Source: an uncultured bacterium (lineage in GTDB: Bacteria > Zhuqueibacterota > QNDG01 > JAGLOF01). Taken from it: a stretch of DNA of 64,000 bases. Numbering within the stretch: the stretch's first letter is position 1; each line of letters starts with the position of its first letter. The position numbers and the translations under genes were made by a program. The notes under the pieces were generated by a model. It ran no database searches, was not told the origin of the DNA, and was given only the letters and a program-made list of their open reading frames with translations. This document shows positions 18,676 to 46,072 of the stretch, in pieces. Where the stretch lies: the NCBI GenBank assembly GCA_964621645.1, contig CAZUMH010000006.1:5173-69172 (forward strand), given 5' to 3'.

Positions 18676-20646
18676 ATGCCTGAAAAGAAATCGCCGGATG
18701 GTGATAAGTTTCAATGGAAGAAGATGTCCCGGGCTCTCTTTTTCTGGGTCCTGCTCTTCGTCGTGGTAATCTATGTTGTCAGTATTTTCAACGGTGGCAG
18801 GGAACGAGAGGTCGAGATAGACTATTATCCCAATTTCGAGCAGCTGGTGCAGGCAGGAGCGGTGGACCGGGTCACGGTGATCGACAATGTCCTGCACGGC
18901 CAACTCTCTTATGAAGAGACATTGGTGAAGAACGGAACGACAATCAAATATAAGAAATTCAAGACAAATCTGCCCCTCATCGACCGGGAAATGCTGCAGC
19001 AGTGGACGGAACAGGGAATCAAATACAGCTTTGAGAACAAATCCGCCGGCTGGTGGGGATTCATCCTCCCCATGCTGCCCTGGGTCTTTTTCATTTTTCT
19101 CTATTTCTTCTTCATTCGGCGTATGCAGGGAGGAGGAGGAGGAGCAAAAGGGATCTTCAGTTTCGGCAAGAGCCGGGCCAAGCTGCTCTCGGAAAATATC
19201 TCCCGGGTTACTTTCGACGATGTGGCCGGCGCCGATGAGGCCAAGATGGAGCTGAGTGAGATCATCGATTTTCTCAAAGAACCGGAGAAATTTCAGGCTC
19301 TGGGAGGGAGGATTCCCAAAGGGGTGTTGCTGCTGGGGCCTCCCGGTACCGGCAAGACATTGCTGGGCAAGGCAGTGGCAGGTGAGGCGGGGGTGCCTTT
19401 CTTCAGCATTTCAGGCGCTGATTTCGTGGAGATGTTTGTGGGTGTGGGGGCTTCCCGGGTGCGGGATCTCTTCGATCAGGGCAAAAAGAACGCGCCGTGC
19501 ATTATTTTCATCGATGAAATAGACGCGGTAGGGAGGCAGCGCGGCGCCGGACTGGGCGGAGGACATGATGAGCGGGAACAGACACTGAACCAGCTTTTGG
19601 TGGAGATGGACGGATTCGAGTCCAACGAGGGCGTCATCCTTCTGGCCGCCACCAACCGGCCCGATGTGCTTGATCAGGCCCTACTTCGTCCCGGACGTTT
19701 CGACCGGCAGGTAGTGGTGGATCGGCCCGATGTGCGGGGCCGTGAAGGCATTCTGAAAGTGCATACCCGCAAGATCCCTCTGTCCAAAGATGTGACGCTG
19801 TCCGTCCTGGCCAAGGGCACTCCCGGTTTTTCCGGAGCTGATCTGGCCAATCTGGTGAACGAGGCTGCGCTGCTCGCCGCCCGGCGAGACCGCAAGCAGG
19901 TACTCATGGTCGATCTGGAAGAGGCCAAGGATAAGGTAATGATGGGCGCGGAACGCCGCAGTCTGGTGATCACCGAAGATGAAAAGAAAAACACCGCATA
20001 TCATGAGTCCGGACACGTGCTTGTCTCCAAGCTTATCCCCGGATCAGATCCGGTGCATAAAGTTACCATCATCCCCCGCGGCAGGGCTCTGGGAGTGACC
20101 TCTTTTCTCCCCATCGACGAGAAGCATAATTATACCAAAACCTACTGCCAGGGCATCATGGCCCATATGCTGGGCGGCAGGGCCGCGGAGATGATTGTCT
20201 TCAACGAACAGAGCACCGGGGCGGGCAACGATCTGGAGAGAGCCACGGAGATGGCCCGCAAGATGGTCTGCGAGTGGGGCATGAGTGAAAAGCTTGGTCC
20301 GGTCACTTTCGGGAAGAAATCCGAAGAGATCTTTTTAGGACGGGAAATCAGCCAGCACCGGGATTACAGTGAAAATACGGCCGTACTCATCGATGAAGAG
20401 GTGAAACGGATGGTTGCCAAGGCGGATACATTGGCCCGTAAACTGATAAAAGAAAATTTGGACACGCTGCACCGGGTTGCCGAAGCACTGCTGGAACGGG
20501 AAATCCTGGACGGTGAAGAGCTGGACCGGCTGTTCAATGGAGAAAAGCTGCCCCGCAAGAAAGCCGTCAAAAAGGAGGAGACCGGGGAAAAGAAAACCAA
20601 ATCCGCCAGGAAACGCGGATCCGGAACAAAAAAAGAGAAGAAATAG
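18676..20646 (+). CDS. ftsH: ATP-dependent zinc metalloprotease FtsH
   Basis: Two TMs, [21 protein letters not shown] motif [20 protein letters not shown] and zinc motif HESGH. Confidence 0.98.
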
Positions 20647-24208: not shown

Positions 24209-27200
24209 ATGACTCAGCGGATATCACATACTGTTCGATTTTTATTATGTGCCGGCCTGCTTTCCATCCCCGGAACGGGTGTGACCCAGTCCGCTTCCCG
24301 GCACAATAAATCCTCGGCGCTATCTTTGGAAGTTGCCGTCCCCCTGCCTGAAGCGGCGGCGGTGGGAAACTCCGGTTCTCTCTTTCAGCCAATCCTTAGG
24401 CGCAACCTCTTTTTCACCGCTCGTGATACGGCGCTTTCAGTCTCCCTGCTCCGACTGGTCAAATCCGATCGGGCTGCCGCAGCCGGAATCGCGGCGCTGG
24501 AAGATATCCCGCTGGGTCTGGATGAACCGGTAAAACCGGATATCACTCCCTCCGGTCTGACCTGGAAAAAGGAACTGCTGGGACGGATATCGGGGGGATA
24601 CCTCTTCCAGGTGCGTTTGAGTTATGTCCCCGGCAAAAACGATAAACCTGTCACACGGATTGTCTTTCAGATCCGGGGCGCGGACAGCAAACAGATCCAT
24701 CCTCCGCTTCCGCCACTCCTGGAGAGCCGATTAGCGGCCGCTCCCGGTCGGACGGCCTCGGATCAATCCGGCACATTATCCAGCCTGTCCACAGCGGCCC
24801 CGCGCCTGAAAATATGGGTCTCCAAAGAAGGAATCGTGCGGATTCCCGCTCTGGTGATTAAAGCGGCCGGTCTGGCACCGGACGGATTCGATCCCCGCAG
24901 ACTGAGCGTCATCAGCCGGGGCCGGGAAATCCCCATCCAGGTGGCCGGAGAAGAGGACGGGGTGCTGGACACCCGGGATGCGGTGGAATTTTTTGCCGAG
25001 CCGCCCTGGGAGTGGGAAGACGCTTCCCAGGACAGGAAGCATCTCGATATTTACAGTAACTGCAACATATACTGGCTGGAAGCGGGAGAGGGGCCCGGTC
25101 TCCGTTTCGGGCAGGAATCGGCCTCGGAAGGCGAAGTGGATTGGTCGGAGCTGCGCTACCCCCGTTCGACTCCTTTCCCGCTCCATGTCGAACGAGACGG
25201 TGCCTTCCACCGGCTCAACTATACACAGGGAGTAGCACCGGCGGATCACTGGGTCTACAGCGGCGGTATCTCAGGGGGAGAGAAGAGGGAGTTCAGCTTT
25301 AAGCTTGCCGCTCCCGATGAGTACGCGCTCACGCCCTTCCGGGTCAGGCTCAAGCTTCGGGGCATCTCAGAAACCGGCACTCTGAACCGGGTGGATGTCT
25401 TTGTCAATGAGGTTCTGGTCGGTTCCGGTGAGTGGCGCAACAACCAGCAACTCTTCCTGGTCAGCGAAGAAGCCAGCGCCGCCTTCCTGAAAGAGGGAAC
25501 CAACCAGCTGACCATTGTCAACCATTCCAGTGACGGCGCTCTTTCCCAACTGTTCCTGGATTGGTTTGACGTGGAATATCCCCACCTGCTGGAAGCGGGA
25601 GACGACTATCTGGAGTTCCGTCCTCCCGCAAACAGCCTGGGAATGGTAAGCCGCTTTGAAATAGGCGGATTCAGCAATCCGGATATCGAGATTTTCAAAC
25701 TCTCGAGCAGCCGGATATTCAAACCGGATATCACTCCGGTAACCGACAGCACCAATACCACCACTTACACCGTACACTTTGACGATCGCATCACGAATGC
25801 CTGCGGCCGTTACCTGGCCTTTACATCAAAGGCTGTATTCGCCCCTGACACCATGGCCCTGGTCCCTCCTTCGGATCTCAGGCAGCGCTCCCTGGGAGCC
25901 GATTACATCGTTATTTACCCCTCAGACTCTCTCGGCGCCGAGCCGCTGGCTCCCCTGCTCGATCTGCGCCGCTCCCAGGGGCACCAAATCGTCCTGGCTC
26001 TGCTGGAGGATATTTACAATGAGTTCAATAACGGGCAGCCCAATCCCCGCGCCATCCGGGAGTATTTACGCTACTGCTATGAGCATCGCTCCGATACCCT
26101 GCAGTACGTCCTCCTGGTGGGAGACGGCACCATCAACCAGCGTCTTACGCCGGCAGAGGGGAACCAGATTCCCGTCTACTTCTACCAGACGGTGAAGTAC
26201 GGGGCCGCTCCTTCGGATCACTGGTACGTGCTCCTGGAGGGGGACGATTACAATCCCGACATGGCCATCGGCAGACTGCCGGTGAAAAACCGGGAAGATC
26301 TGGAGCTGATGGTGGGAAAGACAGTGTCCTACGAAACAGCTCCGCCGGCCGCCTGGAACAACCGCTGCCTGTTGATCGGGGCCGGCGGCTATAATTCGGC
26401 CTTCCAATCCCAAAGTGAAACGCTGATCAGGGAGGTGCTGCCGCCTCTGTTCCATCCGGAGCGGCTCTACCTTGCCGGCGATCCGTCGGATCCCAACGTT
26501 GGAGGCACCACAGATCTGCTGCGTCATCTGGAAGACGGGATGGCGCTAGTCAATTTTCGCGGCCACGGCGGCGGAGCCGTCTGGGCCGACGCCGGACTCC
26601 TTGACCTGGACGATGTGGGGCTGATCCAGAACCGGGACAGACTGCCGTTTATCACCAGTATGACCTGTTTCACCGGTGATTTCTCCGGCGGACGCACCTG
26701 TCTTGCCGAGGCGCTCCTTCTGGATTCACCCCACGGCGCGGTTGCCCTCTGGGGATCGACCGGCCTGGGCTGGGTGTATAATGATTATGTCCTCATCACC
26801 GAATTTTACCGTGAGCTCTCACGCAATCCCCGGGCTCCCCTGGGGGCCCTCCTGGCAGCGGCGAAACGGGACTATTTGAGCGAGACCTGGGGCGACCTGG
26901 CCTGGACAGATGTCCATCAGTATACACTGCTGGGAGATCCGGCTTTGCGACTGGCCCTCCCATCAGACACTCTGGATATCACGCTTGAGAAACGCTCTCT
27001 GGCGCAGGGAGACTCGCTCCGGATCGAAGTTCCTTCTTCCGCCAGTGGATCCAGTGCCCGGGCGGAGGTGTTCCGTCCCGACCGGCAGACAGTGAACAGC
27101 ACCGATTTTGAAAGTCTTCCCACTTCCGGAGACATTGATATCCCTCTCCCGGAGGATTTCGATCTGCAGCGTGCCGGGTTTCGGATACATGTCTGGAACC

Positions 27201-28873
27201 AAAACAGCGGTTATCAGGCTCACGGATTTTCACTATTCTCTTTGGGAGTGACTTTTTTCGATTCTGTCCGGACCATACCGGCCGAACCGCAGGGGGGCGA
27301 TTCTCTCCACTTTGCGGCAATTATCGAAAATGGAGCGGGGATCGACCGGGCCTGGTGCCGGCTGATTTCGCCGGTTCCGGACAGCCTGGAGATGGTCCCC
27401 GGCTCTGTGAGCGGCAGGTACAGAACCCTGAAGGCGGCCGGCCCCTTTAATCCCGGAGTGGAGATCGTCTATGCCATTGGGATCCTCGGCGGCCAGGGAG
27501 ACATAAGCAGTAGTGACACGCTGCGGCTGCATCTGCCGGGAGCGGCCGACCTGAGGATCAACGCTGTTTCCTTTGGAGGAATATCTGCTCCTCAGCTGGA
27601 AGCGGTGATTTATAATAGCGGCGAAGCACCGGCCGGGAAAGCTCTGGTCCTCTTTGCCGACAGCAGCGCTTCCTTGCTTGGCACTGATACGGTTAACGTC
27701 GCCGGTTACAGCCAGACAGTTTCGACGATACAATTGACGCCGCAGAGCCCGCAGCCATTGTCCCTGCGGGTAACGGTGAATCCTGATTCCAGCCTGACTG
27801 AGAGTAACTATGGCAACAACAGCTGGATTGGGATGCTGCAGCCGGATCACTTCCTTGTTACCCCGCAGGAAGGCAGCGGTCCGGCGGATAGAGCGGGTCT
27901 GCCTGGCCGGGTGATGATCCACATTCCCCCCGAAGCCGTTCCGCAGGCGACCGTCCTCAGGGTTCAACGGGGCAGGGGAGGGGATCTTGGTTTAGGCTCA
28001 GCCGTTGAAGCTGCGAATGACACCTTATTCTTCCTGGATCTGCCAGGACTTGATGATCCGGTTTCTCTGACGGAGGAAGCACAGCTTGCCTTCTCTCTTG
28101 ATCCCGGGGACTCCAGCACGGCGCTGCGGCTCTATCGCTGGGAGGCGGAGCGCAGAACCTGGCTGGCCCAGCCAGGTACCGGACAAGATGGACTGCTGAC
28201 GGTGAACAGCGCCATCCTGGGATATTTCCGCCTGGGCAGCAGTGACGACACAGCTCCGCCGGGAATTAATATCGAGGTGCGCCGTCAATCCTTCACCACG
28301 GGAAGTTTTACCTCCCTGCGGCCCGCCTTCCTTATCACTCTTTCCGATTCTTCCGGGCTGGACCTGAGTCCCGGCAGGCTGCGGCTCTTCCTCGATGAAA
28401 TTGAAGTGGCGGAAACCGATTATGCCGTCCCCGACAGCCTTACCGATCCCGAGCGGGTGACGGTCATCTATCAGCCTGAGCTTGAGGCGGGTCAGCATTC
28501 ACTCGAAGTCGAGGCGGCGGATGTGCATGGCAACAGCACGCGTTCTGACGCGATAACGTTCAGAGCCGGCGATACCCTTGAAATCCACTTTCTCGGAAAC
28601 CATCCCAATCCCTTCGTTACGACGACGATTTTCAGCTATATCCTCACCAGCGAAGCGCTGGAGACGACACTGAAAATATACACCGTCTCAGGGACCCTGA
28701 TACGGACCTTTGCGAATGTGGAGATGAACGGAGCCGACTACCACGAGATCTTCTGGGACGGCCGGGATGAATGGGGAGAAGACACTGCCAACGGGGTCTA
28801 TTTCTTCCAGCTCAGGGCCCGTTCCCGGGAAGGATGGCAGGAAGTGACCGGTAAACTAGCCAAACTGAGATAG
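24209..28873 (+). CDS. Large C25 (gingipain/PorU-like) cysteine peptidase with CARDB-like and C-terminal FlgD-Ig sorting-type domain
   Basis: YVLLVGD, SDHWY, DMAIGRLPV, NFRGHGG (catalytic His), SMTCFTG (catalytic Cys), YTLLGDPAL; C-terminus NHPNPF...TLKIYTVSGTLIRT...WDGRDEWGEDTANGVYFFQL. Confidence 0.9.
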   Translation: MTQRISHTVRFLLCAGLLSIPGTGVTQSASRHNKSSALSLEVAVPLPEAAAVGNSGSLFQPILRRNLFFTARDTALSVSLLRLVKSDRAAAAGIAALEDIPLGLDEPVKPDITPSGLTWKKELLGRISGGYLFQVRLSYVPGKNDKPVTRIVFQIRGADSKQIHPPLPPLLESRLAAAPGRTASDQSGTLSSLSTAAPRLKIWVSKEGIVRIPALVIKAAGLAPDGFDPRRLSVISRGREIPIQVAGEEDGVLDTRDAVEFFAEPPWEWEDASQDRKHLDIYSNCNIYWLEAGEGPGLRFGQESASEGEVDWSELRYPRSTPFPLHVERDGAFHRLNYTQGVAPADHWVYSGGISGGEKREFSFKLAAPDEYALTPFRVRLKLRGISETGTLNRVDVFVNEVLVGSGEWRNNQQLFLVSEEASAAFLKEGTNQLTIVNHSSDGALSQLFLDWFDVEYPHLLEAGDDYLEFRPPANSLGMVSRFEIGGFSNPDIEIFKLSSSRIFKPDITPVTDSTNTTTYTVHFDDRITNACGRYLAFTSKAVFAPDTMALVPPSDLRQRSLGADYIVIYPSDSLGAEPLAPLLDLRRSQGHQIVLALLEDIYNEFNNGQPNPRAIREYLRYCYEHRSDTLQYVLLVGDGTINQRLTPAEGNQIPVYFYQTVKYGAAPSDHWYVLLEGDDYNPDMAIGRLPVKNREDLELMVGKTVSYETAPPAAWNNRCLLIGAGGYNSAFQSQSETLIREVLPPLFHPERLYLAGDPSDPNVGGTTDLLRHLEDGMALVNFRGHGGGAVWADAGLLDLDDVGLIQNRDRLPFITSMTCFTGDFSGGRTCLAEALLLDSPHGAVALWGSTGLGWVYNDYVLITEFYRELSRNPRAPLGALLAAAKRDYLSETWGDLAWTDVHQYTLLGDPALRLALPSDTLDITLEKRSLAQGDSLRIEVPSSASGSSARAEVFRPDRQTVNSTDFESLPTSGDIDIPLPEDFDLQRAGFRIHVWNQNSGYQAHGFSLFSLGVTFFDSVRTIPAEPQGGDSLHFAAIIENGAGIDRAWCRLISPVPDSLEMVPGSVSGRYRTLKAAGPFNPGVEIVYAIGILGGQGDISSSDTLRLHLPGAADLRINAVSFGGISAPQLEAVIYNSGEAPAGKALVLFADSSASLLGTDTVNVAGYSQTVSTIQLTPQSPQPLSLRVTVNPDSSLTESNYGNNSWIGMLQPDHFLVTPQEGSGPADRAGLPGRVMIHIPPEAVPQATVLRVQRGRGGDLGLGSAVEAANDTLFFLDLPGLDDPVSLTEEAQLAFSLDPGDSSTALRLYRWEAERRTWLAQPGTGQDGLLTVNSAILGYFRLGSSDDTAPPGINIEVRRQSFTTGSFTSLRPAFLITLSDSSGLDLSPGRLRLFLDEIEVAETDYAVPDSLTDPERVTVIYQPELEAGQHSLEVEAADVHGNSTRSDAITFRAGDTLEIHFLGNHPNPFVTTTIFSYILTSEALETTLKIYTVSGTLIRTFANVEMNGADYHEIFWDGRDEWGEDTANGVYFFQLRARSREGWQEVTGKLAKLR

Positions 28874-33147: not shown

Positions 33148-33180
33148 CTCCCTTTGGCGGCAAATACATGGTGGTGCAGC

Positions 33181-36100
33181 ATGCGATTGAATTCCTACCG
33201 TATAGGTATCATTATCATTCTTTCCGCCCTCCCGCTGTTGGCTCAGGTGGATGAGGAGCAGAAATCCTTCGATTTCGGAGAGAAGCTTTTTCAGGAAGGA
33301 CAGTACGATCTGGCCCTGATTCAGTATGAGAACATTCTGGCCGATTTCCCCTACAGCCACAAGCGTGACCAGGCAATGTACCTGGCCGGGGAGTGCCGCT
33401 TCAATTTGGGAGCCTATCCAGAGGCCAGAAAACTGTATCTGGAATTGGTGGCACACTATAGTGACTCGCCCCTGGCCGGGAAAGCCCAGCTGCGATTGGC
33501 TCAGTGCTTTGAGAAGGAGGGGAAGCCGGAACGGGCCGCTGATTCCTATTACCGGATGTATGCTTACTATACGGCCTCCCCCGAGGCGATTGAAGCCCTT
33601 CTTAAAGCCGCGGTTCTCTATGACCAGACAGGACATTTACTAAAATCCGCTTCTCTCTATACCACCATTCTGGAGAGTGAGGCGGAAGCGCAGTGTAAAT
33701 CAGACGCAGCCCGGGCTCTCATCCTGCTTTACCGAAAACAGGGGGAGCGGGAAAAGGCGGAAGCGGCCGCCCAGCATCTGCTGGAGGCTCCCTACCTGGA
33801 ATCCGACAGCCGGCAGGCTTTGCTGGATCTGGCCGCTGTCCATTCCGATGGAATGCTCTGGAGCAAGGCGGAGCAAGATTATCGGCGCATCCTCGATGCG
33901 GCTTCGAGCGGAGCGGAAGCCGGGAACGAGGCCGTGCTGGGCCTGTCCAGGCTGCTCGTCATGACAAACCGGAGCGCTGAGGCTGAGCGTCTCCTGAGAG
34001 AAAGAATAGCGGGGGAACGTCCCGCCGCAGGGGACCGGCTGCGCCTGCTCTTGGGCCGGATTCTTTTTCAGAACGGCAATGCTGCAGAGGCGTTCCAGCT
34101 GCTGCTTCAGGCCAGGGAGGAGACGTCGTCTCCCGATGTCAGAAACGAGGCCGCTTTATGGGCCGGTCGCGCGGCGCTGCTTATCTCTGAACCCGCCAGA
34201 GCTCTGGCCCTGTTATCGGATCTGGTGAGCGGCGACAGTATCGCTGTTAGCATTCGGAAACAGGGATTGCTCTATACCGCCGAAGCCGCGATTCAGGCGG
34301 GAGATTTTAAGCAGGCACGGATATTTCTCCGGGATTTTCTCTCCCGTTTCCCCCAAGATGCGCTGGCCGCACGGGTTGAGCTGCGTCTTGCCCGAATAAC
34401 CGGCGAGAATTTAGGATGGGAGGAAGAGGGGTTTCTCCTTTTACGGCGAATCATATCGAATTATCCCGATCAGGAGGCTGCCCGCGCCGCCCGGTTTACT
34501 CTGGCCAAAGGAATGGCCAGAGCGGGCCGCAACCGGGAGGCAGCGACGCTGTTTTCGGCTCTGGACGCGGAGGCCGGCTGGTCCCGCTGGGGTCAAAGAG
34601 CCGAGACGGAACTGCAACGACTCAATCCGTTGAATCCGACTGAAACGACCTCTCTGCTGGTGCGGCTTACCGTGTTAACCCAGCAATTTGCCGCCAAACC
34701 TGCAGATCCCCGTCCGCTTCTTGATATGGCCGGAATCTGCCAGGATTCCCTGCGGCAATACTCCGCGGCGGCGGAATACTACCGGCGCTTCCTCCCGACT
34801 GTTACAGATTCACTGCAGCGTGCCGAAATACTGTATCATCTCGGTCTTTGTACCTGGCGGCTGTCGGAAGCTGGCAAAGAGGATCGAGGAGCAGCAGGCC
34901 TTCTTTTTCAGCAGGCTTGCCAGGAAGCGCCGGGCAGCAATATCGCGGCTCTGGCTGAATGGCACTCAATGAGTATGTCCGATTCTGTCGTCACAGGGGA
35001 GCTGGCTGATTTCATGCACCGCTACCCTGACAGCCCTGTATCCAGTCAGGTCCGGCTCAATTTCGGTCTTGGTCTGATGAAAGAGCATTTATTGGACAGC
35101 GCCCGTGTGGAATTGCGTCTGATCTATCATGAGGATGCGGCAGGTGAAACAGCCGGGCAAGCGCTCTATCACGATTTTATCATCAGCAGGATGCTGGGGC
35201 TGGGGGCCGAGGCCGATTCCCTGGCCCGGCAGTACCTTGCCGCATACCCGGAAGGCAGGTATCATCCCCAGGTACGGAAGGCTCTGGCGATCGCCGCTCT
35301 TCCGGAAGATCCAGCGGTTCTCGAGGAGTGGCTGGATAGATATTTTGAGGCTCTGAACGGAGATACGACCGCGGCGCTTCTGGGACGCACCCTGCTGGAA
35401 AGAGGGGAGACGAAGAAAGCGATTCCTCTTCTCTGCCGGTATCTTGAGGCGGACAGTATTCAGGCTCTCGCGGTTCAGACCGGTTTGCGGGAAAACTGGG
35501 AATCCTCCCGAGCCCTTATTCTGGAGCAATTGGCCCGGGCCTATAGGATGTCAGGGGATACACATCGGGCCCGGTGGATGTATTTCAGGCTTTTACGTGT
35601 GGGGGCATCTGGACAACAAACGGGAGAGTATTATCTTTCTCTTGCAGATCTGGCCCGTCAGGAAGAAAACACCGCGGAGGCGGCCTCTTTTCTGCAGGAA
35701 GCGGCCGAAAGGATCGACTCGGACAGCCTGACTGCCCAGTTGGGCGGCTTACAGCTGAAACTGGGAAAAGCGGAGGACGCTGAAAAATCTTACAGGCGTG
35801 CGGAACAGCTCGCTGCCGATCCTGAAGATAAACTGCGTCATAGAGCCATGGCATTGACCTCAGTATACCGTCAGGGTACAATAGCCAGGGCTGACCAGGA
35901 AGCGGAGCGGCTGCCCGCGGCGTATAAGAAAATGCAGCTGTGGCCATGGGTACAGGCATCACTCAATCTGGAAAAAGCCCGGGCTTTAATGGAAGGCAAG
36001 AATTTCGATCAGGCTATCGAAATTCTGGAGAAATTACGTTCGGAATCCTTTAAGGATCTTCTTCCTGAAATAGAATTGGCACTGGGCAAGTCACTGCTGA

Positions 36101-36810
36101 TCACCAACCAGATCGGAGAGGCCCTGAAGATTCTTACCGCCATGCCTGAAAAGTATCCGGATAATCCTATTTTGATTAAAGTATATTACAATCTGGGCGA
36201 CCTTTACTACCGCAGTAATCAGAGAAGCAACGCCATATACGCCCTGCGCCGGGCCCTGCGGGTCCCGGGTGAAAAGACAGAGAAAAAAGATATTTTGAAA
36301 TACCTTATCCGGGTACTGACCGAGCAGGGTATGTATGACGGTGCTCTGGCCCAGGTGCGGGAATATATACACCTTTACCCTAGGGATGATCAAATCCTCA
36401 ACATGAAGGTGAAGATCGGTGATCTTTACCGCAGTCTTAATGACTACAAACGAGCTATCGAGATCTACCGCGATCTCAAACCATATGCCGACCCTCAGAC
36501 GGAGACAGAGATTCAGCTGGCCATCGGTCAGTGTTACGATGCCATGGGCCTCTTTACCGAAGCGGTATATGAATACCTGAAGGTAGTCTATCTTTCCAAA
36601 CCGACCAATCAACTGCCCTGGAAGACTACGGCTCTTTTCGCTGCCGGGCAGGCCTATGAAAAACTGGGTCAGCTGAGTGAGGCACGATCAATGTATGAGC
36701 AGGTTATCAAACGGGAAGGAGCCGGCAGTCGCTGGGGGCAATTCGCAACGGATAAAATACAGAACCTGAATGCTGAAACAAAAGAAAGTGAACGCCAAGG
36801 TAATCGTTAA
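33181..36810 (+). CDS. Very large exported TPR protein (BamD/CpoB-like repeats)
   Basis: Signal peptide MRLNSYRIGIIIILSALPLLAQ; repeated 'YPxS..A..A.Y..G..Y' TPR units across about 1200 aa. Confidence 0.85.
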   Translation: MRLNSYRIGIIIILSALPLLAQVDEEQKSFDFGEKLFQEGQYDLALIQYENILADFPYSHKRDQAMYLAGECRFNLGAYPEARKLYLELVAHYSDSPLAGKAQLRLAQCFEKEGKPERAADSYYRMYAYYTASPEAIEALLKAAVLYDQTGHLLKSASLYTTILESEAEAQCKSDAARALILLYRKQGEREKAEAAAQHLLEAPYLESDSRQALLDLAAVHSDGMLWSKAEQDYRRILDAASSGAEAGNEAVLGLSRLLVMTNRSAEAERLLRERIAGERPAAGDRLRLLLGRILFQNGNAAEAFQLLLQAREETSSPDVRNEAALWAGRAALLISEPARALALLSDLVSGDSIAVSIRKQGLLYTAEAAIQAGDFKQARIFLRDFLSRFPQDALAARVELRLARITGENLGWEEEGFLLLRRIISNYPDQEAARAARFTLAKGMARAGRNREAATLFSALDAEAGWSRWGQRAETELQRLNPLNPTETTSLLVRLTVLTQQFAAKPADPRPLLDMAGICQDSLRQYSAAAEYYRRFLPTVTDSLQRAEILYHLGLCTWRLSEAGKEDRGAAGLLFQQACQEAPGSNIAALAEWHSMSMSDSVVTGELADFMHRYPDSPVSSQVRLNFGLGLMKEHLLDSARVELRLIYHEDAAGETAGQALYHDFIISRMLGLGAEADSLARQYLAAYPEGRYHPQVRKALAIAALPEDPAVLEEWLDRYFEALNGDTTAALLGRTLLERGETKKAIPLLCRYLEADSIQALAVQTGLRENWESSRALILEQLARAYRMSGDTHRARWMYFRLLRVGASGQQTGEYYLSLADLARQEENTAEAASFLQEAAERIDSDSLTAQLGGLQLKLGKAEDAEKSYRRAEQLAADPEDKLRHRAMALTSVYRQGTIARADQEAERLPAAYKKMQLWPWVQASLNLEKARALMEGKNFDQAIEILEKLRSESFKDLLPEIELALGKSLLITNQIGEALKILTAMPEKYPDNPILIKVYYNLGDLYYRSNQRSNAIYALRRALRVPGEKTEKKDILKYLIRVLTEQGMYDGALAQVREYIHLYPRDDQILNMKVKIGDLYRSLNDYKRAIEIYRDLKPYADPQTETEIQLAIGQCYDAMGLFTEAVYEYLKVVYLSKPTNQLPWKTTALFAAGQAYEKLGQLSEARSMYEQVIKREGAGSRWGQFATDKIQNLNAETKESERQGNR

Positions 36811-41587: not shown

Positions 41588-41737
41588 CTCTTGCTCCCTG
41601 AAAATACAATAGTATAAATAAAATAAGCTCTGGGAGGATGAAAGTCAAGCTCTTTGCCTGATTCCCCGCCAGTTGCTTCTCCTCTTCTGATTTCGTATCT
41701 TACAGGGTGTTCAAGGCGTAAAAAAAAGGAGGCCGGG

Positions 41738-42472
41738 ATGAAGCGGAGCCTGTTTATTATTCTGTTAGGGATATGTGTCTCTTCGACCATACTGGCGCAG
41801 GTTTCGCGACAGGAGGTGAAGCCGACCACAGAGGAAGAAGCGCGGATAATCGCCCGCATCAAGGCGTTGCGGTTTTCCATTGACAGTCTCATGCTGCAGC
41901 TGTCTCCTGAAACCAGGGATATGCTGCGCCGTCAGTTGGCCCTGCCGACGGGAAATATCACTATCTCAGTCCCGGTGAGAAGAGAGACAACCCCTGAAAT
42001 CAATACGCCGCAGGTCTTCACTCCCGATCCTAAATATGAGGCCTTGACCCAATTCGATCGTAACGGTGACGGGAAACTGGGCAGCGGTGATGATCTTTTT
42101 ATTGACGCCTTTCAGATCTGGCACGATAAGAACCGGGATAAACGAGTGAGTACCAGCGAACGTTCCGGAATCCAGGAATACCTCAAGGAAATACGATTGA
42201 ATGATGGGACGGCCCTGATTCCGGATGGTACGATTATCTCTTTTTGGATGGTGGATTATGTCATTTTCGACCTGAATCATGATGGAACCAACGATTATGA
42301 AACCGGGACCGGAACTGATGACGGTATCCTGGTTATCGATACAGGGACACTGAATAACCGGGGATATGAGTTACTCTCTCCCTGGGGCAGCAAACTTGAA
42401 GGTGTCGTCCCCATGGAATCAGGGCAGATACTGGTCAGGCCCGATGGCACCAGAAAAACGCTTCTCTGGTAA
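41738..42472 (+). CDS. Exported protein with Dx[DN]xDG calcium-binding loops
   Basis: AGGAGG Shine-Dalgarno and signal peptide from ATG 41738; FDRNGDGKLG, WHDKNRDK and FDLNHDG motifs. Confidence 0.6.
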   Translation: MKRSLFIILLGICVSSTILAQVSRQEVKPTTEEEARIIARIKALRFSIDSLMLQLSPETRDMLRRQLALPTGNITISVPVRRETTPEINTPQVFTPDPKYEALTQFDRNGDGKLGSGDDLFIDAFQIWHDKNRDKRVSTSERSGIQEYLKEIRLNDGTALIPDGTIISFWMVDYVIFDLNHDGTNDYETGTGTDDGILVIDTGTLNNRGYELLSPWGSKLEGVVPMESGQILVRPDGTRKTLLW

Positions 42473-42506: not shown

Positions 42507-43661
42507 TTAACGGAAGCCTGTCTCCGGTGCGTGGGGCAGCCGTTCCAGAGGCCTGGTCAGCTGGAAACGGCCCTCGGCAATCCAGGATTTGAGGATATTG
42601 GAGATGCGTCGCGCTTTTTCCAGACTGGAAAGAAGATAGGCGGGCACATCCTCTCCGCATACCCGCACGCTTCCGTTCATGATCTCTTCCACGGTGGTCT
42701 CGTCCAACACTATCCCGGTCTTCTGGGGATAATCACAGCTGTAATCGACTATGGGCACCCGGATATCACGATTCCGCACTGATACGAACCGCAGCATCTC
42801 CTCATCCAGGATCGGAATGGGAACTCCCAATCCCACCATCATACTGGTACCGTAATTTTTTAAATATACGCCGCGCAGCCATTGGGCGGACATCTGTTTC
42901 AGATCACCGGTAACGGCCATCGTTCCAGCTGGCTTACAGGGGATTCCTCTTTCATTTCTGGGAGCTGCGGGAGCGTGCTGGGTTCCGGGGCCGGTCACGT
43001 ATCCTATTCCCCCGCCTAAAAAAATACGGGTGCCCACTCCTATGGTACGGAAATATGGATCGTTCATGAGAGGACTGAGCTCCCCGGCCCCGCTGTAGGT
43101 GGCATTGCCGTAGCGCGGTTTTAAAACACCCATGTAGGTATGAATCGTACGGGTGGAACCGTTTACAGCGCAGTTGTAATTTTGATAGGCGTTGCGGGGA
43201 CAAAACAGAAAGGCATCCGGAAGATCGGCCAGAGAGATTTCTTTCTCCAAGATCAGGCCGGGGTAGCAGTCGGTACCTGTTCCTTCAGCGCTCAGTGTTA
43301 TCTTCCCTCCGGAAAGTAAATCCTGGATGACATGACCGCCGCCGTAGCGTGCCGGTCCATCCGTCCCGTTTTCCCGCGGCTGAGTGGCTCCGAGGTAGCA
43401 ATCCACCGCAGCCAGTCCGGCGTAAGCTTCGACTCCGTTAAGCCTGATCCGGCGCAGTTTCATACGGGGGGTGGGGTGGCCGATGTTGAAAAAGGCGCCG
43501 GAGGAGCACATGACACCGAAGGTTCCGGTGGTGACCACATCGACCTGCCTGGCAGTGCGTTCCACGCCGTGACGGTCGATACAGCGCAGGACTTCCTCGG
43601 CCGTGACCACCACCGCCTGCCGGCGGCGGATTTTCTCGTTTATTTTTTCGTAAGTCCTCAT
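42507..43661 (-). CDS. Homocysteine biosynthesis protein (DUF39/COG1900; aspartate-semialdehyde sulfurtransferase-like), no CBS domains
   Basis: RTYEKINEKI...AVVVTAEE, VDVVTTGTFGVMCSSGA, GTDCYP, NAYQNY and GIGVGTRIFLGG-like segments characteristic of the family. Confidence 0.9.
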   Translation of the reverse strand: MRTYEKINEKIRRRQAVVVTAEEVLRCIDRHGVERTARQVDVVTTGTFGVMCSSGAFFNIGHPTPRMKLRRIRLNGVEAYAGLAAVDCYLGATQPRENGTDGPARYGGGHVIQDLLSGGKITLSAEGTGTDCYPGLILEKEISLADLPDAFLFCPRNAYQNYNCAVNGSTRTIHTYMGVLKPRYGNATYSGAGELSPLMNDPYFRTIGVGTRIFLGGGIGYVTGPGTQHAPAAPRNERGIPCKPAGTMAVTGDLKQMSAQWLRGVYLKNYGTSMMVGLGVPIPILDEEMLRFVSVRNRDIRVPIVDYSCDYPQKTGIVLDETTVEEIMNGSVRVCGEDVPAYLLSSLEKARRISNILKSWIAEGRFQLTRPLERLPHAPETGFR

Positions 43662-43685: not shown

Positions 43686-45065
43686 TCAGTCATTTCCATT
43701 GAGAAAAAGACGGTGCACTGCCTGTACGCTTGCGTTGACGCACTGGCGGGGTACAATGAAATAGGCGGCCACCCGGGAGGCACCGGAAACAACCAGGTGT
43801 ACGTGACTGCCGCTTTTATTAATTGTTCCGATCACATCGGTCAGACAGCCTTCCGATTCCGCCAGTCCCTGTCCGACCACGGCCACCAGACCGATGCTGT
43901 CCACCGGCTCGATTTGATCGATACCGGATGGCACGATCCGTCTCAGCGTCTTTTCGGCCGGATCGAGATCGGATCGGTCCAGCAGGATGTTGATGCAGGT
44001 CTGGCTGGTCATGACCGAGCGGATGTTCACACCGCTTTGCCCCAAGGCCGAAACCAGAATTCCCAGAAGGCCGGTTGCATAACCGACATCCGCGCCATGT
44101 ACCCGTAAGAGAGCGATGTCTTCCTTGTAGGTGACGCTTTTTATCACGCCTTTCTGTACCGGGCTGTTTTTGGTTATGATGGTTCCAGGATTGTCCGGGT
44201 GAAAGGTATTGCGGATATAAATTGGAATAGCAGTATCCAGCAGGGGCTCGACGGTGCGGGGGTGGAGGATGCCGGCACCAAAATAGGCGAGTTCGGCGGC
44301 TTCGTCATAGGAGAGAGAGGGGATGATACGGCTGGAGGTAACTACCTGGGGGGCCGCGCTGAGAAATCCATCCACATCCTTCCACATCTCCAAACGGTCG
44401 GCTTCCAGGCAGGCAGCCAGAACGGCGGCGACATAATCGGATCCGCCCCTGCCGAAAGTAAGGGGAACGCCTGGAGACCTCTGTCCGAAAAAGCCGGTGA
44501 CCAACGGCAGCTTTCCTTCCCGGAGGACGGCATGAATGTGCCGCGGCAGGAGTTCTCTGGTCCACTTCAGATCGGCGCTGGCGTTGCCCCAGGGACCGCG
44601 GCCCACCAGATCGATCCCGTCGCCCTCCAGCAGGGCGCAGGTCCTGCCCCGGGCCTCAAGAATGCCTGCCATTACCGTGACGGCCAGCCGTTCACCCATG
44701 GAGAGGATGTGGTCCTGCAGGCGGGGAGTGACCTCGCCTGTGTAGGATATCCCGGTACAGAGACGCTGCAGTCTTATTGTCAGCTGGTCGATCCCGGCAA
44801 AGGTCTTGTTGCGGATCAGGCTGTCCGGAATGCATTCCCGTGCCACCCGATGATGCCGGTCGCTGAGATCGCTCAATTGGGCCTGAAGGCTGTTTTCAGA
44901 CTCGAGCGCTACCCGCATGGTTTCCAGGAGCGTATCGGTGACTCCGTCAAAGGCGGAGAGAACAGCAACTATCCGTTTCCCTGAAGCTGAGGCGATGCGG
45001 AGGGCCGCTTCAAAAATGGAATCGCTTGCTTGCAGGGTCGATCCGCCGAATTTCATCACAATCAT
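43686..45065 (-). CDS. lysC: Monofunctional aspartate kinase with ACT domains
   Basis: MIVMKFGGS, VLSAFDGVTD, SMGER, TFGRGGSDY, WKDVDG, SYDEAAELAYFGA and two ACT repeats. The start overlaps the upstream stop (ATGA at 45062-45065). Confidence 0.93.
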   Translation of the reverse strand: MIVMKFGGSTLQASDSIFEAALRIASASGKRIVAVLSAFDGVTDTLLETMRVALESENSLQAQLSDLSDRHHRVARECIPDSLIRNKTFAGIDQLTIRLQRLCTGISYTGEVTPRLQDHILSMGERLAVTVMAGILEARGRTCALLEGDGIDLVGRGPWGNASADLKWTRELLPRHIHAVLREGKLPLVTGFFGQRSPGVPLTFGRGGSDYVAAVLAACLEADRLEMWKDVDGFLSAAPQVVTSSRIIPSLSYDEAAELAYFGAGILHPRTVEPLLDTAIPIYIRNTFHPDNPGTIITKNSPVQKGVIKSVTYKEDIALLRVHGADVGYATGLLGILVSALGQSGVNIRSVMTSQTCINILLDRSDLDPAEKTLRRIVPSGIDQIEPVDSIGLVAVVGQGLAESEGCLTDVIGTINKSGSHVHLVVSGASRVAAYFIVPRQCVNASVQAVHRLFLNGND

Positions 45066-45829
45066 TCTTTTTCCCCTTTCACAGGTAATACAGTCGTTCT
45101 GCGACCCGGCAGACATCCCCGGGTAATGAGACCGGTATCGTATGGAATTCTTTTCAGAGCAGGGAGGCTCCCCCACAGAGCTATGTCTCGTCCCAGCACG
45201 GCCAGGCCGCCTTCGATCTCGGGTATATCAGCCAGAACGTCGAAACAGTTAGTCAGGTCTTTTTTACTCAGCACCCGATTGCCAAGGGCGGTAGCCGCTG
45301 CGTCCGCTGTCACCAGATCAAAGGAGACAACCAGGGCCGCGTCCGCCTTTCCATAGCTGTGCGAATGTCCCACGGTTCCGGAAGAGGTGGCGATTCCAAA
45401 GGGTCGCGGGCGAGGGAGAGCTTCCAGCGCCAATTCCACGGGAAACCCGGGGCCGCAGTAGAGGCCCACCAGTACGGGCGAGGTGACGAACAGCGCGATA
45501 TCGCCGCCGTTGTCCACCACGGCTTCCGGTGCCCCGGCTTTGAGCAGAGAGTCCAGACATTCCCAAGCCACCATCCCCGCAACCGCGGCCATGGGGCCGA
45601 CTCCGCTTTTTTCCGCGGAGAGATACATCCTTTTAATCGATTCAGGGACTCGATCGGGAATATCCAGGGGGTCGTGTGAGGCGGCGAATTCCGGATGCAG
45701 GCTGATCCACTGCCGCAGAAGGCCGCGGGTTCTGCGTACAGAATCCACGGCAGCGGGAAAGAATTTCTTCTCTACCAGAACCGTCAGGATGCTCTCTCCG
45801 ATTTCAATATGATGTCTTTGCCAGCGCAT
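45062..45829 (-). CDS. UPF0280 (ApbE-like, COG2122) protein
   Basis: HPEFAASHDP, GVGPMAAVAG, VVDNGGDIA, GIATSSGTVGHSHSYGKADA and ADAAATALGN. Confidence 0.9.
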   Translation of the reverse strand: MRWQRHHIEIGESILTVLVEKKFFPAAVDSVRRTRGLLRQWISLHPEFAASHDPLDIPDRVPESIKRMYLSAEKSGVGPMAAVAGMVAWECLDSLLKAGAPEAVVDNGGDIALFVTSPVLVGLYCGPGFPVELALEALPRPRPFGIATSSGTVGHSHSYGKADAALVVSFDLVTADAAATALGNRVLSKKDLTNCFDVLADIPEIEGGLAVLGRDIALWGSLPALKRIPYDTGLITRGCLPGRRTTVLPVKGEKE

Positions 45830-45838
45830 AATTCACAT

Positions 45839-45873
45839 AAAAAAAGCCCGCGGCTTTGGAAGCCGCGGGCTTT
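45839..45873 (-). terminator. Attenuator terminator
   Basis: RNA: AAAGCCCGCGGCUU-CCA-AAGCCGCGGGCUUUUUUU. A perfect 14-bp inverted repeat plus U7, ending 10 nt before the UPF0280 ATG on the same strand. Confidence 0.88.
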
Positions 45874-45899
45874 GTATCCTTGTCCAATGCTATGACTAC

Positions 45900-45998
45900 C
45901 TAGACATGTCCCACGGCCTCCCTATAAGCGCTGCGCATGCCCATAAAGGTGACACTCATGTTCATGATGGCGGGAATTGTCCGGCGTGTGTTATTCAT
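45900..45998 (-). CDS. Putative Met-rich leader peptide (32 aa): MNNTRRTIPAIMNMSVTFMGMRSAYREAVGHV
   Basis: Translated by hand; below the ORF-track size cut-off. Met codons at positions 12, 14, 19 and 21, plus three Thr and two Ile codons. Lies between a sigma70 promoter and the terminator; purine-rich upstream region. Confidence 0.78.
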   Translation of the reverse strand: MNNTRRTIPAIMNMSVTFMGMRSAYREAVGHV

Positions 45999-46043
45999 TT
46001 TACCTGTTTTACTTCCTTGCGATACTTTTTATTGATGGGGATA

Positions 46044-46072
46044 AATATACGATCCGTGGATATCAGTGTCAA
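46044..46072 (-). promoter_or_regulatory. Sigma70 promoter of the leader/homocysteine operon
   Basis: Minus strand TTGACA-N17-TATATT (consensus -35, near-consensus -10). Confidence 0.8.

Follow-up and report, generated by a model that had tools for sequence, protein, structure and literature searches.

The amino acids for which leader-peptide attenuation of transcription is classically described are Trp, His, Phe, Leu, Thr and Ile/Val, and Actinobacteria have variants with Cys codons. For methionine genes, the known means of control are S-adenosylmethionine (SAM) riboswitches, T-boxes and protein regulators. Here we describe an RNA element in a 64,000-nucleotide stretch of contig CAZUMH010000006.1 from an uncultured bacterium (hereafter, the window). 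This element is probably a ribosome-mediated (leader-peptide) transcription attenuator that uses Met regulatory codons to control a homocysteine operon. The operon begins with a gene of the UPF0280 family, followed by genes for an aspartokinase and for HcyBio (DUF39). Leader, terminator and operon are all on the minus strand, and positions are given in window coordinates (Table 1).

Attenuators of the trpL type, which include trpL of Escherichia coli and the related his, thr, leu, phe and ilv leaders (RF00513, RF00514, RF00506 and others), carry a short promoter-proximal open reading frame (ORF) with a cluster of codons for the end product. Four RNA regions form mutually exclusive 1:2, 2:3 and 3:4 pairings, of which 3:4 is an intrinsic terminator before the first biosynthetic gene. 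The window element shares this layout, but its regulatory codons specify Met (AUG), it has no sequence homology to these leaders, and its region 2 lies inside the ORF instead of after the stop codon. Hosts of the trpL type are Proteobacteria, whereas those of the window type are uncultured bacteria of the Fibrobacterota–Chlorobiota–Bacteroidota (FCB) group. The Bacteroid-trp leader (RF01692) is a leader-peptide attenuator from Bacteroidota, within the FCB superphylum, and has Trp codons in front of trp genes; Rfam scans of the window and homologous loci gave no match to it.

Leader ORFs with Cys codons precede cys and cbs operons of Actinobacteria such as Mycobacterium, Propionibacterium and Bifidobacterium (PMC1262725; polycysteine sORFs, bioRxiv 10.1101/834739). 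Like the window element, these are short ORFs with codons for a sulfur amino acid upstream of its own biosynthetic operon, and were found by comparative genomics outside Proteobacteria. However, their Cys codons occur in runs, an intrinsic terminator is absent, and a Rho-dependent or translational mechanism was proposed for them, whereas the window combines Met codons with a canonical terminator and antiterminator. The comparative study of Actinobacteria explicitly reported that it had found no RNA element associated with methionine operons in that group (PMC1262725). A literature search of incomplete coverage turned up no Met-codon leader peptide, and an earlier description is possible.

A different sensor stands before the same pathway in a Thermovenabulum metagenome-assembled genome (L081:2129-7126). 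There, a SAM-I riboswitch is followed by genes for HcyBio, a NIL/4Fe-4S ferredoxin, UPF0280 and cobalamin-dependent methionine synthase (metH); together they read as a methionine operon that contains the complete DUF39 pathway and is controlled by SAM. This riboswitch occupies the same regulatory position before the same pathway genes as the window leader, but it senses SAM directly through an aptamer of ~110 nucleotides and does not need translation; an aptamer of this kind is absent from the window. SAM-I riboswitches usually act through a terminator, and that of L081 presumably does likewise. Since SAM-I precedes the same genes, the position is apparently one of Met regulation, in which lineages have swapped sensors. 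Sensor swapping between lineages has already been described for other pathways (PMC2965389).

At the gathering threshold, Rfam models detect only two tRNAs in the whole window. With E <= 10, a 551-nucleotide region around the leader yields only weak, terminator-driven matches to Thr, His and Leu leaders, and the scores of Thr_leader (RF00506; 27.7 bits) and His_leader (RF00514; 27.1 bits) do not reach the respective gathering thresholds of 55 and 49. The nine homologous loci described below give no match at E <= 0.5. SAM riboswitches (SAM-I to SAM-VI and SAM/S-adenosylhomocysteine) and a Met T-box were rejected because no Rfam match to them was found in the window or the homologous loci; the SAM-I of L081, serving as positive control, was detected with 96.3 bits. 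Thus, no SAM or T-box family explains a region that an earlier, sequence-only reading of this DNA had taken for a trp/his/thr-type attenuator with Met codons before a methanogen-type homocysteine pathway. The comparisons and predicted pairings reported here support that proposal.

Conservation of the leader

Contigs encoding 12 of the best UPF0280 matches were retrieved, and the leader is present in eight of them. Because these eight relatives were picked by the downstream protein alone, they are unbiased as to the leader. Unlike them, a ninth (L108) was found by scanning metagenomes with a DNA pattern. The window and these nine loci make up our comparison set of ten leaders (Table 1). The UPF0280 proteins of the nine loci are only 47-55% identical to that of the window, whose nearest homologue among 5.8 billion proteins is 56% identical.

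All ten loci share the same order of parts, namely a promoter, an ORF of 24-34 codons, 19-37 nucleotides, a terminator, a U tract and UPF0280. The window promoter matches 11 of 12 consensus positions and has a 17-nucleotide spacer, a spacing that is found in all ten loci, and the leader start codon follows the -10 hexamer by 25-82 nucleotides. Met occupies codons 1, 12, 14, 19 and 21 of the window ORF. The sequence-only reading had located the promoter (TTGACA-N17-TATATT, 46072-46044), a 32-codon ORF with four Met codons within codons 12-21, and a 14-base-pair terminator with U7, and each of these parts is where it was placed. Conservation of the ORF and its Met codons upstream of UPF0280 in relatives bears out the significance that was given to them.

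Met makes up 29 of the 279 internal codons of the ten leaders (10.4%), compared with 1.9% in the long ORFs of the window. This enrichment is 5.4-fold, with a nominal binomial p of 3.5e-13 that overstates independence, as the leaders are related by descent. No residue other than Met exceeds 1.7-fold, and the next (F, R, G and T) are at ~1.5-fold. Additional sensing of Thr and Ile, which the sequence-only reading had entertained, is rejected, for Thr is enriched only 1.5-fold (p 0.048) and Ile is not enriched (0.9-fold), and neither forms consistent clusters. Each leader has two to five internal Met codons, and the sequence ATGG(G/A)CATG is found in nine of ten. L115 has no MGMR motif, yet three of its internal codons are Met, and in L112 the motif is MGMP; Met codons, and not one fixed sequence, are therefore what the leaders have in common. 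We also asked how often such clusters occur by chance. In all six frames of the 64-kb window, only four clusters have at least four in-frame ATGs per ten codons, and the three outside the leader are antisense within plus-strand ORFs of at least 220 amino acids, one of which is a confirmed Memo-like gene.

Terminator and antiterminator

The window terminator consists of 14 pairs (nine G-C) and a CCA loop, with a predicted free energy of -25.4 kcal/mol, and its U tract ends at 45839, 9 nucleotides before the UPF0280 ATG at 45829. Terminators of the ten loci range from -15 to -25 kcal/mol. Five strong terminators are present on the two strands of the window, and only that of the leader is situated between a promoter and a gene start. 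RNAalifold, applied to the ten leaders, reports the terminator as the sole conserved structure, with 11 pairs, four of which show compensatory changes. A conserved aptamer-like fold was rejected on this basis.

The antiterminator proposed in the sequence-only reading, in which GGCCGUGGG (45918-45910) pairs with CCCGCGGCU, is retained as to the pairing and corrected as to its length. The predicted helix has 12 base pairs, not nine, and joins GGAGGCCGUGGG (45921-45910) to CCCGCGGCUUCC, which belongs to the terminator 5' arm and loop. At -26.6 kcal/mol, this helix competes energetically with the terminator, with which it also covaries. Of 500 shuffles of the ORF segment, 0.2% pair as well as region 2 does. 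A region 2 that resembles the terminator 3' arm, with G(U/C)GGG and matching bases, is found in the 3' part of the ORF in all leaders, and is predicted to be capable of pairing with the terminator 5' arm in every one of them.

Since MAFFT misplaced the register of region 2, we compared region 2 with the 5' arm by means of an anchored table and a permutation test. Cognate duplexes have a mean of -16.5 kcal/mol, versus -13.9 kcal/mol for non-cognate ones, and only 1,727 of 200,000 random re-pairings are at least as good as the cognate pairing. Five leaders that share a register exhibit compensatory changes beyond the GGG:CCC core, at helix positions 1, 4, 5 and 6. For example, position 4 is C-G or U-A, and position 5 is G-C, A-U or U·G.

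A second amendment concerns the state of region 2 before the terminator is transcribed. At that stage, a 1:2-type structure is predicted to sequester it through pairing with codons 9-10 (45974-45970) and 15-17 (45955-45949) in a long, imperfect hairpin. The four internal Met codons are all on or inside the 5' strand of this hairpin, such that a ribosome stalled at any of them would be expected to open it. As modeled, the window element is a four-region attenuator with trp-like logic.

In nine of ten loci, the last Met codon is 12-19 nucleotides before region 2, just beyond the 3' edge of a ribosome; in the window, 17 nucleotides separate the first base of codon 21 from the beginning of region 2. 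The latter ends 7 nucleotides before the stop codon in the window and in L115, where a terminating ribosome would prevent the antiterminator. Equilibrium folding of the full leader was uninformative and was replaced by folding of nascent RNA that lacks the 3' arm. When the ribosomal A site is placed on a clustered Met codon in such folds, pairing of the 5' arm with region 2 is predicted for each of the ten leaders, where a leader is counted if the pairing is seen for at least one Met codon upstream of region 2.

Codons, peptide or RNA as the conserved signal

Conservation in the leaders extends beyond Met. The Gly or Asp between Met codons and the Arg that follows are kept in eight of ten leaders, and a C-terminal GG(F)R or VGFR recurs. 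These residues raise the possibility of a nascent arrest peptide, M-G-M-R ... (V/A)-G-G-F-R, that stalls the ribosome in response to methionine, SAM or homocysteine instead of at hungry codons. TnaC and SpeFL, and for SAM the MTO1 peptide of plant CGS1, would be models for such a peptide. The sequence HFYFGYSI, conserved between L089 and L108 with synonymous changes only, is also consistent with selection on the peptide. However, L115 and L112 depart from MGMR and retain several Met codons, and the N-terminal halves of the leaders are unrelated between subgroups. Moreover, the C-terminal (V/A)GG(F)R is encoded in region 2 and its flanks, by exactly those bases (G(U/C)GGGA, UUYCG) with which the terminator arm pairs, so that a constraint at the level of RNA explains the conserved C-terminal residues. 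We therefore regard an arrest peptide as unlikely.

Another alternative is a purely RNA-level element, such as a small riboswitch or a site for a protein or small RNA, around UAUGGGCAUGCG and GUGGGA, with the reading frame being incidental. In its favor, the 12-nucleotide ATGGGCATGCGC is identical, including wobble positions, across loci whose proteins are ~50% identical, and the ORFs have weak Shine-Dalgarno sequences. The identity of ATGGGCATGCGC is nonetheless largely attributable to Met having a single codon, which fixes six of the nine bases in ATG-NNN-ATG. In addition, several features indicate that the ORF is read as codons. Of 42 ATGs inside leader ORFs, 38 are in the leader frame and two are in each of the other frames, and this preference extends to ATGs outside the motif. 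The leader frame has no stop codon in any of the ten loci, while the +1 frame is stopped in nine. The start ATG of L108 is GTG at the homologous site of L089, and spacers between the Met motif and region 2 in five leaders are 18, 18, 12, 15 and 15 nucleotides long, all multiples of three. Given also that RNAalifold finds no conserved helix besides the terminator, that no Rfam family matches, and that L115 is without the motif, an RNA-level element of this kind is very unlikely to be the explanation.

Proposed mechanism

Four of the features that define attenuators of this class are present in the window: a short ORF, a cluster of Met codons, an intrinsic terminator with no promoter between it and the gene, and a predicted antiterminator that excludes the terminator. 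We infer that the leader is translated, that ribosomes stall specifically for want of Met, and that stalling affects read-through. Transcription would start at the sigma-70-type promoter, and a ribosome would translate the 32-codon leader. With charged elongator Met-tRNA in good supply, the ribosome would reach the end of the ORF and would either cover region 2 (45921-45910) or leave 1:2 paired. The terminator arms (45873-45843) would then pair, and RNA polymerase would stop at the U tract. When Met-tRNA is scarce, the ribosome would stall with the AUG of codon 12, 14, 19 or 21 in its A site, thereby breaking the 1:2 structure and leaving region 2 free. Free region 2 would pair with the 5' arm of the terminator as it emerges, no terminator would form, and the operon would be transcribed.

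Several observations weigh against this mechanism. The Shine-Dalgarno sequence before the leader ORFs is weak or absent; that of the window leader is AGGU, 3 nucleotides before the AUG, and the aspartokinase and HcyBio genes have good ones. Several leaders have just two internal Met codons, although trpL likewise has only two regulatory codons. Met sensing by itself does not account for the conserved G and R near the Met codons or for the C-terminal (V/A)GG(F)R. Under severe Met starvation, initiation on the leader itself should also suffer. In L085, L086, L089 and L108, region 2 ends 10-19 nucleotides before the stop codon and is thus only partly covered by a ribosome at the stop, which means that termination must rely on the 1:2 hairpin; a local hairpin of this kind is clearly predicted in L086 and L089. 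Finally, when the complete transcript is folded at equilibrium with a modeled ribosome, the terminator is always favored, and the model therefore rests on the order of folding during transcription.

Without a ribosome, nascent RNA at equilibrium favors the antiterminator in eight of ten leaders, and read-through would consequently follow whenever the 3' end of the ORF is not translated. In the window, the 1:2 structure may form first even when no ribosome is present. This behavior, along with the retention of promoter and terminator without a Met-rich ORF in L111, is compatible with general coupling of translation and transcription or a constitutive partial terminator that sets a basal level or reports translation capacity or initiator tRNA, with the in-frame AUGs as redundant starts, but we consider this quite improbable, as a 5.4-fold enrichment specific to Met before a Met-precursor operon is to be expected of specific attenuation, the internal AUGs are not preceded by ribosome-binding signals, and the Met codons keep a constant 12-19 nucleotides from region 2.

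The attenuator reading and the dependence on initiation might be combined. With region 2 inside the ORF and pairing with the 5' arm unless translated across, as predicted in those eight leaders, scarcity of either elongator Met-tRNA or formylmethionyl-tRNA (fMet-tRNA) would switch the operon on. It is conceivable, though doubtful, that this element represents a class of leader-peptide attenuators that would be the first to read Met codons, and that it is suited to an amino acid used in both initiation and elongation: a stall at an internal AUG or a failed initiation would turn the operon on, and refolding could also gate translation of the first gene.

If Met-codon attenuation is confirmed, it would fill a gap among the amino acids known for attenuation, show how attenuation works when the sensed amino acid is itself required to begin the leader peptide, and add uncultured FCB-group bacteria to the organisms with leader-peptide control. 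It would also support, independently and from regulation, the view of the COG2122–aspartokinase–DUF39 cluster as an operon dedicated to the methionine branch, offer a compact Met-responsive genetic part of ~160 nucleotides, and correct UPF0280 starts that are mis-annotated by extension across the terminator.

Table 1. Parts of the element and operon in the window, and leader peptides of the nine homologous loci
Feature	Position	Strand	Sequence	Remarks
-35 hexamer	46067..46072	-	TTGACA	TTGAC(A/T), TTGGCT or TTGTCA at the homologous position in 10/10 loci
-10 hexamer	46044..46049	-	TATATT	Identical in 10/10 loci
Leader ORF	45900..45998	-	MNNTRRTIPAIMNMSVTFMGMRSAYREAVGHV*	32 codons and stop; also a gene call on the source contig
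Region 1	45969..45976	-	UUCCCGCC	Codons 8-10; 45974-45970 predicted to pair with 45914-45910
First Met pair	45957..45965	-	ATG AAC ATG	Codons 12 and 14; directly 3' of region 1
Second Met pair	45936..45944	-	ATG GGC ATG	Codons 19 and 21; conserved M-G-M motif
Region 2	45910..45921	-	GGAGGCCGUGGG	Putative antiterminator 5' strand, codons 26-30; resembles terminator 3' arm
Region 3	45860..45873	-	AAAGCCCGCGGCUU	Terminator 5' arm
Region 4	45843..45856	-	AAGCCGCGGGCUUU	Terminator 3' arm
U tract	45839..45845	-	U7	First three U within the stem
UPF0280 / COG2122 (ApbE-like)	45062..45829	-		First gene; NF003324, E 2.4e-64; PF27030 (precomputed annotation)
Aspartate kinase with ACT domains	43686..45065	-		Start overlaps UPF0280 stop (ATGA)
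HcyBio (DUF39 / COG1900)	42507..43661	-		Last gene; sulfur-incorporation enzyme; PF01837, 487.7 bits
Leader peptide, L082			MKIIQSIFSYTDWALMPMGMRKTQPQALGGVRP	UPF0280, aspartokinase, HcyBio, in the order of the window
Leader peptide, L113			MIQFGFTITQTTWGMMSMGMRITTQQVMGKEYLR	UPF0280, aspartokinase, HcyBio, in the order of the window
Leader peptide, L085			MELRKTLHIYTSDTTMGMREHRAVGGFR	Short contig
Leader peptide, L109			MEVQKTYTVFTDGSTMGMRESNRAGGFL	Short contig
Leader peptide, L086			MIHRGNGQNSMDMRNSCGFVGGFR	UPF0280 and HcyBio
Leader peptide, L089			KVSAKHFYFGYSIMGMRNSRSIVGFRQGPY	GTG start; UPF0280, aspartokinase and HcyBio
Leader peptide, L108			MKNSMAHFYFGYSIMGMRGSLCFVGFRKPLY	
Leader peptide, L112			MGHLIQGHFRMGMPGAARFSMRFR	UPF0280, aspartokinase and HcyBio
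Leader peptide, L115			MNICMKNMNPAPAMGKTRITAGFR	UPF0280 and aspartokinase

The operon and its first gene

The operon comprises three genes, as HcyBio is followed by a convergent ORF on the plus strand. In Desulfovibrio, DUF39, COG2122 and NIL/ferredoxin proteins are genetically required for the conversion of aspartate semialdehyde to homocysteine, and DUF39 and NIL/ferredoxin are also implicated in homocysteine synthesis in Methanosarcina (PMC5764234). These roles of COG2122 and DUF39, and an aspartate kinase that supplies the pathway, suggest that the operon is dedicated to the methionine branch. The window operon has no gene for NIL/ferredoxin, which is required with DUF39 elsewhere, and the gene for the partner ferredoxin must be in another part of the genome. 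The space between HcyBio and a patatin gene contains two small ORFs on the minus strand, which were considered for this role and rejected, for they have no Pfam match and their space is occupied by the convergent ORF. The latter (41654-42472, plus strand) has a signal-peptide-like N-terminus and weak EF-hand matches.

In nine of ten loci, UPF0280 starts 0-13 nucleotides after the U tract and has no Shine-Dalgarno sequence. L082 is the exception, with AAGGAG and 71 nucleotides from the U tract to UPF0280. Because the start abuts the U tract and has no Shine-Dalgarno sequence, the state of the terminator and antiterminator might gate translation of the first gene. The U tract runs directly into an ATG (TTTTTTATG) in six of ten loci, and in the window this ATG belongs to a minimal AUG-UGA start-stop (45838-45833).

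The N-terminus MRWxRHH is conserved among UPF0280 homologues. Several database versions of the protein (P0016, P0019, P0025, P0039, P0053, P0057 and P0062) carry N-terminal extensions that correspond to translated terminator and U tract (…IDRGLFLCA-MRW, …TIAGFFYA-MRW), and P0025 starts within the MGMR region of the leader, in another frame. Judging from these extensions, gene callers mis-start UPF0280 genes across the putative attenuator.

Distribution and variants

The DNA pattern used to scan metagenomes, TATGGNNATGCG…KTDGGA…TTTTTTATG, gave 18 matches, of which three are real (L108, which is new, and two duplicates). The remaining matches have no terminator or UPF0280 gene, as chance predicts. 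The pattern was too strict, since it missed L109, L112, L113 and L115. Among 80 loci of GTDB species with UPF0280 homologues (33-52% identity), none has ATGGGCATGCGC with the second motif, and none has a terminator preceded by an M-x-M ORF. Two loci in which UPF0280 stands alone (L002 and L084) are without the leader. The distribution observed in these sequences indicates that the element is restricted to the nearest clade of the window.

L111 (L111:1770-1885) also has a solitary UPF0280, with no aspartokinase or HcyBio gene after it. A promoter (TTGACT…TACATT) is kept, and a terminator (GUCUACGA…UCGUGGGC) with U6 is directly before the UPF0280 start. The sole ORF between them is ATG ATA TAA. 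This locus looks like a decayed form of the attenuator.

In L113, a mini-ORF of four codons (ATG AGA AAA TAA; L113:2826-2841) is just upstream of the leader, and its stop codon overlaps the leader start (TAATG). This arrangement could possibly load ribosomes onto the leader by termination and reinitiation.

Beyond the operon, on the same strand, are genes for a patatin-like phospholipase and a histidine kinase of the HisKA_2/HWE type (window 40748-39597, minus strand; L082:7423-8744). In L082, this pair follows the operon directly, and synteny is thus kept despite protein identity of ~50%. The window also encodes two large proteins, a PorU-like sortase-domain protein and a PorW/SprE-like TPR lipoprotein (24209-28873 and 33154-36810, plus strand), with scores below the NCBIfam cut-offs; proteins of these types are related to components of type IX secretion. 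FtsH (18676-20646) has its best database matches, at no more than 77% identity, in proteins of unclassified "bacterium" entries, and is 66-67% identical to proteins of Calditrichaeota and LCP-89. Taken from these genes, the host is likely an uncultured bacterium of the FCB group.

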